Positions 15,976-30,332 of a DNA stretch of 64,000 nucleotides are shown piece by piece (the first letter of the stretch is position 1; the number at the start of each line of letters is the position of its first letter). Origin of the DNA: an uncultured Elusimicrobia bacterium (GTDB lineage: Bacteria; Elusimicrobiota; Elusimicrobia; 2-01-FULL-59-12); assembly GCA_963702895.1 (NCBI GenBank), contig OY969767.1:2560001-2624000 (forward strand), in the 5' to 3' direction. The position numbers and the translations under genes are program-made. A model generated the notes under the pieces. That model searched no databases and had not been told where the DNA came from. It was given only the letters and a program-made list of their open reading frames with translations.

Positions 15976-17337
15976 TTATTCAAGAGTGATGCGCGAAAAT
16001 CCAAGGGAGGGCCGAAGCGCCTCGGGGATAACGACGGAGCCGTCCGCTTGCTGGAAGTTCTCAAGGATCGCTGCGAACGTGCGGCCGACGGCGACCCCGG
16101 AACCATTTAAGGTGTGCACAAACTCTTTTTTTCCATCAGCGCGTTTGAACTTGATATTCATGCGCCGTGCCTGAAAATCGGTGAAGGTGGAACAGGAGGA
16201 GATTTCGCGCCACCTCCCCTTCCTCTGTCCCGCGTCCTGTGTCCCGCGTCCCGCGCCTGTCCTGGACTCTGGACGCGAGACTCGGGACTCGGGACCGTCC
16301 TCGGAGGGTTCACCCGGCATCCACACTTCCAAGTCATAGGTCTTGGCGGAGGCAAACCCCAGGTCCCCCGTACACAAAGCGACGACGCGGTAAGGGATTT
16401 TGAGCTTGTCGAGGATTTTTTCTGCGCTTGCCGTGATCAGCTCCAGCGCTTGAAGGGAGTCCTCGGGCTTTACAAACTGGACGAGCTCCACTTTGTTGAA
16501 CTGGTGGTTGCGGATGAGTCCCTTCGTGTCCTGCCCGTAGGACCCCGCCTCGCGCCGGAAGCAGGAGGAATAGCACACGTATTTTTTGGGGAGGTCTTTC
16601 TCATCGAGCACCTCGTCCCGGTGGAGATTGGTGACCGAGACTTCGGCGGTCGGGATGAGATACAGGTTGTCCCGCTCAACGCGGAAGAGCTCTTCTTCAA
16701 AGCGGGGGAGTTGTCCTGTCCCTTGCATGGATTGAGGTGTGACCAGATACGGCGCAAAGATCTCGGTATAGCCGTGCTCCTGGGTATGGACATCGAGCAT
16801 GAAGGTGATGAGCGCGCGCTCGAGCGCTGCTCCCTGGCCCTTAAGCACGGGAAATCCCGAACCCGAGAGCTTCACCCCAGACTTAAAGTCGAGGATGCCC
16901 AACGCCTCGCCGATCTCCAGATGCGATTGAGGGACAAAACCGAACTCCGTTTTTTTGCCGACCTCACGCAGGACTTTATTGTCGGCCGCTTCAGCCCCCA
17001 CGGGAACCGAAGCGTCCGGCATGTTATTGAGGCGCAAAAGAAGATCGTTGAGTTTGGGGTCGATCTCGGCGAGCTGAGCTTCGAGGACTTTGATTTCCCC
17101 CTTTTTGAATTCCACCTCTTTCAGGAGGGGCGCGACGTCCCCTTTCTGGGCCTTCACGCGTCCAATTTGGTCGGCGGACTTGTTGCGCGCGGCCTGCAGG
17201 CGCTCGAGCTCCGCCAGAACCTGACGACGCTCGCCATCCAGGACATAGAGAGTGCCGATATCGAGCTTCGAGCGGCGATGAACGAGCATCTGCTCGAGGG
17301 CTTTCCTGTTTTCGCGGATCCACCGTATGTCAAGCAT
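15976..17337 (-). CDS. serS: Seryl-tRNA synthetase with a ~30-aa repeat-derived insertion
   Basis: MLDIRWIRE, YLIPTAEV, CFRREAGS, HQFNKVE, EISSCS, HTLNGSG. Confidence 0.98.
   Translation of the reverse strand: MLDIRWIRENRKALEQMLVHRRSKLDIGTLYVLDGERRQVLAELERLQAARNKSADQIGRVKAQKGDVAPLLKEVEFKKGEIKVLEAQLAEIDPKLNDLLLRLNNMPDASVPVGAEAADNKVLREVGKKTEFGFVPQSHLEIGEALGILDFKSGVKLSGSGFPVLKGQGAALERALITFMLDVHTQEHGYTEIFAPYLVTPQSMQGTGQLPRFEEELFRVERDNLYLIPTAEVSVTNLHRDEVLDEKDLPKKYVCYSSCFRREAGSYGQDTKGLIRNHQFNKVELVQFVKPEDSLQALELITASAEKILDKLKIPYRVVALCTGDLGFASAKTYDLEVWMPGEPSEDGPESRVSRPESRTGAGRGTQDAGQRKGRWREISSCSTFTDFQARRMNIKFKRADGKKEFVHTLNGSGVAVGRTFAAILENFQQADGSVVIPEALRPSLGFSRITLE
16219..16308. repeat. Heptamer tandem-repeat hairpin (GTCCCGC/GGGACGC type) in frame in serS
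   Basis: Coding strand GTCCCGA GTCCCGA GTCTCGC GTCCAGA GTCC...GGGACGC GGGACAC AGGACGC GGGAC. Confidence 0.9.
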
Positions 17338-21659: not shown

Positions 21660-21699
21660 GGCCGTTCCCTTTCCCCTTTCCCCTGTCCTCTATTCCCTG
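21518..21699. repeat. Nested heptamer hairpins (AGGGGAA outer, AAAGCAG inner) spanning the batB stop and batC signal peptide
   Basis: Purine-rich and pyrimidine-rich 7-bp repeat arms that are reverse complements of each other. Confidence 0.85.
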
Positions 21700-22709
21700 A
21701 CCATGGTCTTCCATCCCTGCTCCGGGATCACGAGGCTCGCAAGCAAAAGCAGAAGGCCCAGCGCGAGCGGCCACTGATATCGGTTTTCAAACCGGTTAAA
21801 AAGGCGCGACTTCTGATCGCCCTGCTCAAGCGCTTCCAGGCGCCGAACGAGCTCATCGACCTCATCTCCGACGGGGCTCGCCCGCAGATAGTGGCCGCCT
21901 GTTTCCTGCGCCAGATCGAGCAGCGTCTTCTCATCCAGACGGCTCAGCACCACGTCTCCTTTTTTATCACGTTTATAGCCCGCGCGATGGCCCTGGACAT
22001 CGATGACCGGGATAGGCTCTCCCTGCGGAGTGCCGATTCCGATGGGAAAAATCTTCACTCCCGCCTTGGCCGCTTCCTTGGCGGCGCCTCGAGGATCGCT
22101 CTTATGATCTTCGCCGTCCGTGAGGAGCACGAGGACACGGTGTTGCCCTTCGCCGGCCCGCAGGCCCTTGGCCGTCACGCGGATGGCATCTCCAAGGACC
22201 GTGCCTGGGATGGGAACGGTGCCGGTATCCACCGTTTCCAGGATATCCTTGGCCGCATTCTCATCCACCGTGAGCGGGCACTGCACATAGGCCTGACCGG
22301 CGAAGGCGATGATCCCGATGCGGCTTCCGGCAAGCCGGTCGATGAGCTGCCCTAAAATCAATTTGGCATGCGCCATACGGCTGGGCTTAAAGTCCTCCGC
22401 CTGCATGGACAGCGAGCAGTCGACCGCGATAAAGATATCCAGCCCCTTCTGCTTGTATTCGACGAGTTTCGAGCCAATGAGGGGGCCCGCTAGAGCGATC
22501 ACGAGGAACAAAAGCCCCGTCGTTCGCAAGTGCTCGGTCAAGCGTCTGCGGCGCTCGAGAGCCTCCGGCAGCATGCGCGCGATCGTCGACGGCTCTCCCA
22601 GGATCTGAAAGGCCTTCCTTCGCCTGCGCCGCAGCAATCCGTGGCCGATCGAAAGAGCCGCGACCGCCGCCAGCCATAGAAACATCGAAGGATAAGCGAA
22701 ATAGTTCAT
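21690..22709 (-). CDS. batB: BatB-like VWA domain protein
   Basis: DCSLSM MIDAS, FAG...CPLT, LTDGEDH, GIGTPQGEPIP. Confidence 0.9.
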   Translation of the reverse strand: MNYFAYPSMFLWLAAVAALSIGHGLLRRRRRKAFQILGEPSTIARMLPEALERRRRLTEHLRTTGLLFLVIALAGPLIGSKLVEYKQKGLDIFIAVDCSLSMQAEDFKPSRMAHAKLILGQLIDRLAGSRIGIIAFAGQAYVQCPLTVDENAAKDILETVDTGTVPIPGTVLGDAIRVTAKGLRAGEGQHRVLVLLTDGEDHKSDPRGAAKEAAKAGVKIFPIGIGTPQGEPIPVIDVQGHRAGYKRDKKGDVVLSRLDEKTLLDLAQETGGHYLRASPVGDEVDELVRRLEALEQGDQKSRLFNRFENRYQWPLALGLLLLLASLVIPEQGWKTMVRE

Positions 22710-22738
22710 CTATTCCTCATCATTTAGATCGCTTACGC

Positions 22739-22953
22739 CGTCATTCCGGCGAAAGCCGTCCCCCTTACGACCGGGGGACTGTCCCTTCCTATGATCTCTA
22801 GGGATGGGGACGGAATCCAGAACAGCATCGACGAACTGGACCCCGGGTCTCCACAAGACCGGCGACCCTCCGCCACACGACAGGCGGAGAGCGCCGGGTG
22901 TGTGGCGCTCGGCCCGCCGGATGTGTGGAGGGCCGGCTTTCGCCGGGGTGACG
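22739..22953 (+). repeat. GTCATTCCGGCG...GCCGGGGTGACG palindrome with two nested inserts
   Basis: Base element plus a 54-bp insert at 22758-22811 and a further hairpin insert at about 22845-22934. Confidence 0.9.
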
Positions 22954-22963
22954 ACTTTGGAAC

Positions 22964-23956
22964 TCATGGAACGGTCCTCCAGATCGTCAGCTTCAATCCG
23001 TAGCCTGCACACAAAAGCATCATCGCGAAGAGAAGCCATCCCAAGTAGTGATCGCGATATTCCCGGATCGAGGGCCCTTTGATCTCTGTTTTTTCCAGGC
23101 TGTCGATCTCCTGATAGATAGCGTCAAACTCTTTGGTACTGGCGGCACGGTAATATCGGCCGCCGGTCGCGCGGGCAATGTCTTCGAGTCCTGGCTCATC
23201 CAGATCCTCCGGGACGGGAACCAGTTGTTTTCCCCAAACGGTGTCTACGGGAATGACGGATTGTCCGCGTATGCCCACGCCGATCGTGTAAATCCGGATG
23301 CCGAGGCCCGCCGCGGCTTTGGCCGCGGTGGCGGGATCGATTTCGCCAGAATTCGACCGTCCGTCGGTCACAAGAATAATCACCTTGCTCTTGGCGGTGG
23401 AACGCTTCAGATGATGAGCGGCGGTCGCGATCGCTGTTCCGATCGCGGTGTTTTCCGTGGAGGTGATACCGACTTCGACCTGGTCCAGAAACTCCAGGAG
23501 CGCCCCATAATCGAGCGTCATGGGACATTGCAAGAGGGACACCCCCGCGAAGGCCACCAGGCCAATCCGGTCAAACTGCCGGTGCGAAATGAACGTCTTG
23601 GTCGCCTGCTTGGCGACCGCCATGCGGTCCTTGGGATTAAAGTCCAGCGCCCGCATGGACCCCGAGGTATCGAGCGCCGCGATGATGTCAATGCCGCGAG
23701 CTTTGGCCTCATCGCCCTTCATGACGGTCCTCGGCCGGGCCAGCGCCACGATGGCCAGTGCCAGCCCCCCATAGACCAGGAACTCTGGCACCTTCCGGAA
23801 GCGCGTCCGCCAGGTGACGGGCAAGGGCGAAAGGATCTGCAGGTGCGGAAACGGCAGGCGCGCGACATACGCTGCTGTTTTTTTCTCGCGAAGCGCGATG
23901 ATCAGCCCCAGTGGCACAAGCAGAAGGAAAGCCATCGGATTTCCAAAATTCATCAT
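22964..23956 (-). CDS. batA: BatA-like VWA domain protein
   Basis: ALARP, DTSGSM, DRIGLVAF, TDGRSNSG, IYTIGVG. Confidence 0.92.
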   Translation of the reverse strand: MMNFGNPMAFLLLVPLGLIIALREKKTAAYVARLPFPHLQILSPLPVTWRTRFRKVPEFLVYGGLALAIVALARPRTVMKGDEAKARGIDIIAALDTSGSMRALDFNPKDRMAVAKQATKTFISHRQFDRIGLVAFAGVSLLQCPMTLDYGALLEFLDQVEVGITSTENTAIGTAIATAAHHLKRSTAKSKVIILVTDGRSNSGEIDPATAAKAAAGLGIRIYTIGVGIRGQSVIPVDTVWGKQLVPVPEDLDEPGLEDIARATGGRYYRAASTKEFDAIYQEIDSLEKTEIKGPSIREYRDHYLGWLLFAMMLLCAGYGLKLTIWRTVP

Positions 23957-30088: not shown

Positions 30089-30144
30089 CCGGGAATTTTC
30101 ACTTGAGTTTATCCTATCCTCTGAGCATCGTGCGCTTTTTAGTC

Positions 30145-30332
30145 CGTCATCCCGGCGGACGCCGTCCCCCTTACGTCCGGGGGACTGTCCCTTCCTATGA
30201 TCTCTAGGGATGGGGACGGGATCCAGAACATCGTCGATGGACTGGACCCCGACTTTCGTCGGGGTGACGTCAACAGAAGATCCCAGGCTAACGTAGGGAT
30301 GTCGGCCCGGCGCGTTGTTGGCTGGGATGACG
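30145..30332 (+). repeat. GTCATCCCGGCG palindrome with the 54-bp nested insert, followed by an extra arm
   Basis: 30145-30269 closely matches 22739-22953 minus its second insert; an additional GGGATGACG arm ends at 30332. Confidence 0.88.

Follow-up and report, generated by a model that had tools for sequence, protein, structure and literature searches.

What is, by comparison with relatives, the former start codon of batB still overlaps the stop codon of batA and now opens an 85-codon frame, which crosses a palindrome of the CGTC-REP/SRM type and ends directly before the present batB start; across the genome, open frames behind such old starts that end at the start of the next gene occur in excess. 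On balance, we favour the reading that the old batB start likely carries ribosomes through the hairpin to the new batB start, and that the open frame has been kept by selection, as judged from the sequence of this and related genomes. Positions refer to the window, the stretch of 64,000 nucleotides of contig OY969767.1 from an uncultured Elusimicrobia bacterium, except where a coordinate of its genome (G000) is given.

The bridge ORF, delimited from the sequence, congener comparison and coding score, lies on the minus strand (22967..22710, 258 nt, ATG to TAG, 85 stop-free codons). Upstream of it lies batA (22964..23956, minus strand; 330 aa) and downstream batB (21690..22709, minus strand; 339 aa), both recognised by ORF and Pfam as encoding VWA proteins; the start of BatB, MNYFAYPSM, was also found in congeners. 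BatA-N and VWA domains were matched by Pfam in both proteins, within a MoxR/DUF58/Bat operon, and the names batA and batB fit. The bridge ATG (22967) overlaps the batA stop (22966-22964) in the context ccATGA, sharing TGA with it, and the bridge TAG directly abuts the batB ATG at 22709, with bridge and batB in the same frame. This anatomy, with an ATGA start and 85 codons read through a 215-bp repeat to a TAG before batB and in its frame, had been put forward in an earlier note on this DNA and is borne out by the sequence. The spacing from stop to start is -4 (ATGA) at the upstream end and 0 (TAG-ATG) at the downstream end, and both lie within the range of about -4 to +3 that section 6 of PMC12548453, in the part of the text available, gives as optimal for coupling.

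Each end of the bridge is preceded by a Shine-Dalgarno sequence. A GGAGG within the 3' end of batA (22976..22980, minus strand), 8 nt 5' of the bridge ATG, gave a duplex of -9.3 kcal/mol with the anti-Shine-Dalgarno sequence taken from the 16S end of the same genome, and was presumably the ribosome-binding site of the ancestral batB. The present batB has a GAGGA (22714..22718, minus strand; duplex -5.6 kcal/mol) that overlaps the final bridge codons. A small local hairpin of -6.8 kcal/mol was predicted at this site, and its opening energy of 8.3 against a genome median of 8.9 denotes ordinary accessibility. One fold had suggested long-range pairing that would hide the batB Shine-Dalgarno until the bridge is translated; this was rejected, as the site stayed paired with the left flank held open, and the ordinary local opening energy also counts against it. 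The possibility that the TAG is an assembly error or a reassigned codon was likewise rejected, since TAG ends 445 of the 2252 called genes and was present in one contig from an independent DNA run, which covered 22484-22749 at depth 2 with 5 differences, none of them in the TAG or the 3' flank. No contig extended across the whole insert in four DNA runs, each with a small share of the organism, and a look for RNA runs containing it found none listed.

The history of the junction was read from relatives. BatB was found in 36 of the 41 genomes searched and 30 junction loci were fetched, one of which was the window's own; with locus L025 left out, as its piece held no batA, 28 were scored. The batA stop lay at most 4 nt from the batB start in 24 of these 28, in 14 cases as NTGA (ATGA or GTGA), and it overlapped the batB start in all three congeners. 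In a tree of BatA and BatB the window's genome was nested in its genus as sister to G003 (100/99). Because relatives have the overlap and G000 is nested within the genus, ATG 22967 is on this comparative evidence the ancestral batB start and not a new one, a point that the earlier note had missed, and the 258 nt behind it were gained in this lineage. Four other relatives carried unrelated inserts at the same junction. The overlap start was kept in three of them, with frames ending at +4 (G006), +4 (G012) and -15 (G004) from the batB start and unrelated peptides; in G008 the overlap start was lost and there was no bridge.

The insert is a palindrome enlarged by nested modules. Its outer inverted arms (22953-22930 and 22762-22739) span 215 bp, its fold reached -146 kcal/mol (z -7.9), and 181 blastn matches were found in the genome. 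With the modules removed, both arms read CGTCA-stem-GAAA-stem, end in CCAG and stand head to head as a dimer. This arrangement corresponds to CGTC-tagged REPs, described in the available text of PMC3733652 as having an unpaired CGTC end, a stem of 8-9 bp, a loop of 4-5 nt and a CCA tail. Both arms match the degenerate pattern of the Ssn-related motif (SRM) published in PMC11893778 with modules removed, neither as it stands; the genome holds 147 matches to this pattern, where one shuffle gave 24. The left arm (first part 22933..22953, minus strand; last 7 nt at 22842-22836, past module B) is, without its modules, identical at 28/28 nt to the SRM 5' of a GIY-YIG gene (G000:543291), and the right arm (22739..22820, minus strand; 22820-22811 plus 22756-22739, split by module C) is identical, without its module, at 28/28 nt to the SRM 3' of that gene (G000:543645).

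Module B (22843..22932, minus strand), in the left arm, measures 90 nt and consists of a 48-nt hairpin module with module B2 nested in it; of its 29 copies in the genome, 27 are 48 or 90 nt net, and the two exceptions lie in convergent gaps. Comparison of copies placed B2, a 42-nt double hairpin, at 22868..22909 (minus strand). It is 42 nt long in 7/7 carrying copies and missing from 15, and a contig from another run skips exactly those 42 nt. Module C, a double hairpin in the right arm (22757..22810, minus strand), is 54 nt long in 6/6 copies. All three lengths (48, 42 and 54 nt) are multiples of three, and 4/4 partial configurations were open in the bridge frame; because the same lengths recur in untranslated contexts, they are a trait of the family and do not prove selection at this locus. 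Contigs of other organisms commonly carry the module-free form. A further CGTC composite with module C in common (about 92% identical over 108 nt) lies in the window at 30139-30330. Rfam gave only a sub-threshold microRNA match on the insert (E 0.8), which was rejected, and a pattern search for an intrinsic terminator or internal promoter within it was negative.

A likely source of the repeat is present in the same genome. A 96-aa GIY-YIG ORF at G000:543339 has an SRM on each side, and a second small GIY-YIG gene at 554279 likewise lies between such arms. As described in the available portion of PMC11893778, NTS/SRM motifs go with Ssn GIY-YIG nucleases, with cleavage of single-stranded DNA. 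One of the SRM-flanked genes was, by tblastn, about 57% identical to Neisseria and rhizobial GIY-YIG proteins; a search of the PDB for relatives of the GIY-YIG protein found none. The two cassettes (L173, G000:C1:543291-543645, and L170, G000:C1:554228-554590) are likely autonomous partners of the repeat, and the insert would be a gene-less derivative of such an SRM-flanked, Ssn-like cassette. L173 lies between what we take, from their sequence, to be a cysteine desulfurase-like and an mnmA-like gene. Other small GIY-YIG genes (G000:C1 near 580617, 1700967, 1813193 and 1813505) adjoin tRNA genes or partial tRNA copies, and one of this group, situated in an rRNA spacer, has an internal TGA.

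Open frames behind overlap starts were then counted across the genome, using 2252 genes from a self-trained, home-made gene caller and scoring repeat-bearing gaps of 50-600 nt. Repeats that began over 60 nt past the stop were left out of this first comparison and of the two that follow. Of 53 co-oriented gaps with an overlap start, 41 had a frame from that start that crossed the repeat; where such a start was lacking, the corresponding frame did so in 26 of 132 gaps, and in convergent gaps, used as a control, each frame crossed it in 17-20 of 74. In 22 of the 53 the frame extended the next gene at its N-terminus. Of the remaining 31, 14 were bridges with an end within -12..+11 of the next start; the controls gave 18 of 132, and the shuffle expectation for the former had a mean of 6.9 and a maximum of 12 in 300. 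CGTC dimers alone were open in 12 of 14 cases with an overlap start and 12 of 32 without (p 0.004), and many unrelated repeat families in the genome showed the same open-frame outcome.

An ortholog test, meant to avoid our own start calls, drew on 2.20 Mb of G004 together with smaller portions of G006 and G007. Among 700 orthologous junctions, 156 had at least 40 nt extra in the window's genome; the 85 that were uncoupled in the shorter genome were left out, 71 were coupled in the relative, and an insert limit of 350 nt left 70. The overlap start had been lost at 32 of these ancestrally coupled junctions and one had been kept at 38. Of the start-keeping junctions, 35/38 were open (20 bridges, recO-glyQ among those found, and 15 N-terminal extensions) against 21.5 expected, with P 1e-8 to be read in the light of windows set after the data were seen, some non-independent paralogous junctions and an ancestral state taken mostly from one relative. 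Reciprocal inserts in the relatives were open in 14 of 16 cases against 9.8 expected (P 0.003). In a weak control, junctions that are not coupled in the relative were likewise open in 10 of 15 cases.

These counts are consistent with a filter that acts on the frame. A palindrome of the CGTC-REP/Ssn type would have landed just behind the ATGA that joined the batA stop and the batB start. An insert in such a place would part the next gene from its ribosome-binding site, and inserts that break the frame would be purged unless the old start is lost. Survivors would then be of three kinds: those in which the old start has gone and translation of the next gene begins independently, those in which the frame runs into the next gene as an extension, and those in which it ends at the new start, as at batB. 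There, ribosomes finishing batA would restart at the old ATG, translate the bridge while melting the hairpin, stop at the TAG and reinitiate on the adjacent batB ATG; later insertions of the 48, 42 and 54 nt modules would have been tolerated because the frame was kept.

The earlier note had proposed that selection keeps ribosomes moving through the structured insert so as to preserve coupling and avoid polarity, and had suggested comparison with the random expectation across intra-operon copies. That comparison, made at overlap starts and in the ortholog test, came out above chance and supports selection on the frame. Translation across the insert is, however, not generally required: a strict need for the relay is countered because batB has its own Shine-Dalgarno, because those of bridged genes are no weaker than those of unbridged genes (p 0.78), and because nearly half of the junctions have lost the old start, these 32 of 70 being joined here by the unbridged insert of G008. 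Avoidance of polarity is possible, since rho is present in the genome, and is less favoured than coupling.

A protective function of this kind can be put in its own right, namely that the frame is open to protect the message: ribosomes arriving from the strong old site must not stop in the hairpin, where unprotected RNA would be exposed to termination by Rho or to decay, and batB is served by its own Shine-Dalgarno. In E. coli, REP-dependent stalling occurs within about 15 nt of a stop, and here the arm starts 10 nt past the batA stop; this, the presence of rho and the ordinary accessibility of the batB Shine-Dalgarno speak for such protection. The ends of the bridges, however, gather at the next start (18 of 26 within -7..+4, near the range optimal for coupling) and not merely beyond the hairpin, untranslated structured inserts are tolerated at the 32 of 70 junctions without the old start, and the insert lacks an intrinsic-terminator pattern, so that we regard protection of the message as an unlikely explanation.

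Somewhat less probable again is that the bridge is a relic, the repeat having entered the 5' end of batB as an open N-terminal extension that was later cut off by the TAG because BatB begins with a membrane anchor, with leftover translation that is needless. The bridge is in the batB frame both here and in G004, 23 N-terminal extensions occur in the ortholog sets, and the batB-batC junctions of relatives that carry inserts are all extensions. Cleavable signal peptides, as judged by eye with no validated predictor, were seen in about 9 of 15 extended genes and in 0 of 20 bridged ones, which also fits such a history. Against it, 8 of 26 bridges, as well as those of G006 and G012 at batA-batB, terminate at an NTGA in a different frame from the next gene, which excludes them as relics of fusion, and the strong Shine-Dalgarno and the ATG have been retained. 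A relic may nevertheless describe the history of this locus alongside present coupling.

A further account is chance: the ATG was left over in front of a palindrome rich in GC and poor in stops, and the resulting open frame has no function. The palindrome is 63% GC and is crossed whole by two of three sense frames, CGTC dimers show about two of six frames open whatever the context, and 23% of 200 dinucleotide shuffles produced a frame whose end fell in the interval -25..+20 around the batB start (shuffle p ~0.23). Thus the open frame at batA-batB alone is not beyond chance and the excess is visible only across loci; the bridge is ordinary as a single ORF and a member of a statistically solid class. 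The excess at class level across the genome, the bridging of 3/3 other start-keeping inserts at batA-batB and the placing of the stop exactly at the batB start nevertheless make chance a doubtful explanation. The peptide itself looks non-coding, with a coding score per codon of -0.10 (batA and batB: 0.36-0.38) and no Pfam or NCBIfam match, and would be a by-product; that its 85 residues act as a small protein within the Bat complex is very improbable despite an intact ORF with a good Shine-Dalgarno inside the operon, since the peptide is lacking in congeners, the bridges of relatives at this junction encode unrelated peptides and the same repeat is read in other frames elsewhere in the genome.

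Neighbouring junctions carry repeats of several kinds. A second bridge in the operon (window 24088-23963, minus strand) has an ATG that overlaps the stop of the DUF4381 gene by 8 nt and runs for 41 codons through a CGTC/SRM dimer, stopping 6 nt short of the batA ATG; in G006 this junction carries a bridged insert of independent origin. From the ancestral batD ATG, which overlaps the batC stop (window 20932-20740, minus strand), the frame continues through some 60 codons of 7/8-mer hairpin repeats that extend the protein before the signal peptide, and relatives have different repeats at the same place. At batB-batC (window 21690-21500, minus strand), purine-rich and pyrimidine-rich repeats appear to encode part of the hydrophobic N-terminus of BatC, and the overlap start present in 8/8 family relatives is lost. 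The ORF at window 15976-17337 (minus strand), which from its motifs we take to be seryl-tRNA synthetase, has an in-frame, repeat-like insert near its C-terminal motif. Another hairpin family, of the CCCTCTCCC...GGGAGAGGG type, occupies the moxR-DUF58 and batE-pdxH gaps (window 25925-25816 and 18194-17959, minus strand) without an overlap start. The family ATGACCCC.. / ..GGTGGGGTGA (G000:C1 near 1072007, 2138627, 2350716 and 2411033) brings its own start, an SD-like sequence and NTGA; it looks more MIRU-like than the CGTC repeat, and a similar element lies at batA-batB in G012.

Taken more broadly, it is possible, and we propose it tentatively, that in this lineage a general filter makes several families of unrelated, untargeted micro-repeats transparent to translation, leaving only open frames, as relay or extension, behind surviving overlap starts. 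Under the same joint proposal, relay ORFs would belong to cytoplasmic and signal-anchor proteins and signal-peptide extensions to exported ones, and modules evolved in threes would let an Ssn-linked palindrome go on growing within operons with the ribosome relay intact. With the present counts, the idea attached to MIRUs, so far argued from anatomy, gains a signature by which selection for translational coupling can be measured: where a natural insertion meets an ancestrally overlapped junction, the old start is lost or its frame stays open as far as the next gene. Some 20 natural relay ORFs in one genome form a set on which reinitiation and independent initiation can be tested against each other. 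Annotators should regard small ORFs of this kind, and unexpected N-terminal extensions, as scars of repeats; for the CGTC-REP family, an Ssn-like nuclease cassette is a likely source.

Several known systems resemble the arrangement in part. Rickettsia palindromic elements (RPE) are repeats read in frame inside proteins. The repeats of this genome are similarly translated as in-frame N-terminal extensions at other junctions (15 of 38, and batD), whereas at batA-batB a TAG ends the frame and there is no join to BatB; RPE are mentioned in the available text of PMC3733652. The short ORFs of integron attC and attI1 sites (ORF-11, ORF-17 and attC ORFs), which run through palindromic recombination sites and which the available part of PMC8876359 presents as proposed to melt the hairpin and let ribosomes reinitiate at the next gene, share with the bridge a passage through a palindrome and a peptide sequence of little weight; in contrast, no integron, integrase or cassette array is present here, and it is a host start codon, left over from before, that opens the bridge. 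With CGTC-REP/Ssn elements, so far as the available text of PMC3733652 and PMC11893778 describes them, the insert has in common the CGTC end, short stem, head-to-head dimer and SRM-fitting arms. Those portions deal with REPs in or near ORFs and with cleavage of single-stranded DNA, whereas the frame-neutral nested modules and relay ORFs belong to the present case. Relay ORFs in repeats of the REP or SRM type were not described in the main text of the open literature searched, which gave only MIRUs and integrons as parallels.

The closest parallel is the MIRU (mycobacterial interspersed repetitive unit; Supply et al. 1997), in the available text of PMC12548453 an operon repeat at a start codon whose short ORF couples its neighbours with little disturbance of expression. 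The batA-batB insert is likewise a repeat at a start codon within an operon, with a short ORF from the upstream stop to the downstream start. Measured against that portion of the source, it differs in that the repeat is a CGTC/SRM palindrome and in that start codons are not targeted, since, of the 54 CGTC dimers that lie in co-oriented gaps, 14 stand behind an overlap start, a share close to the background for gaps of 60-400 nt (110 of 514). The CGTC arms lie 0-57 nt from the upstream stop, and 32 of the 54 dimers have no upstream start. By the same partial description, MIRUs differ also in their built-in ORF: copies of the present repeat are read in different frames or in none, and the start and stop of the bridge lie in locus-specific flanks of 10 and 29 nt. 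The downstream spacing is that of TAG-ATG, 0 instead of -4, and functionally similar. As far as that account of MIRUs goes, the batA-batB insert would thus work like a MIRU but is not one: the relay of ribosomes is known from mycobacterial repeats, and here it is met with in an unrelated repeat, as a filter that shows across the genome.
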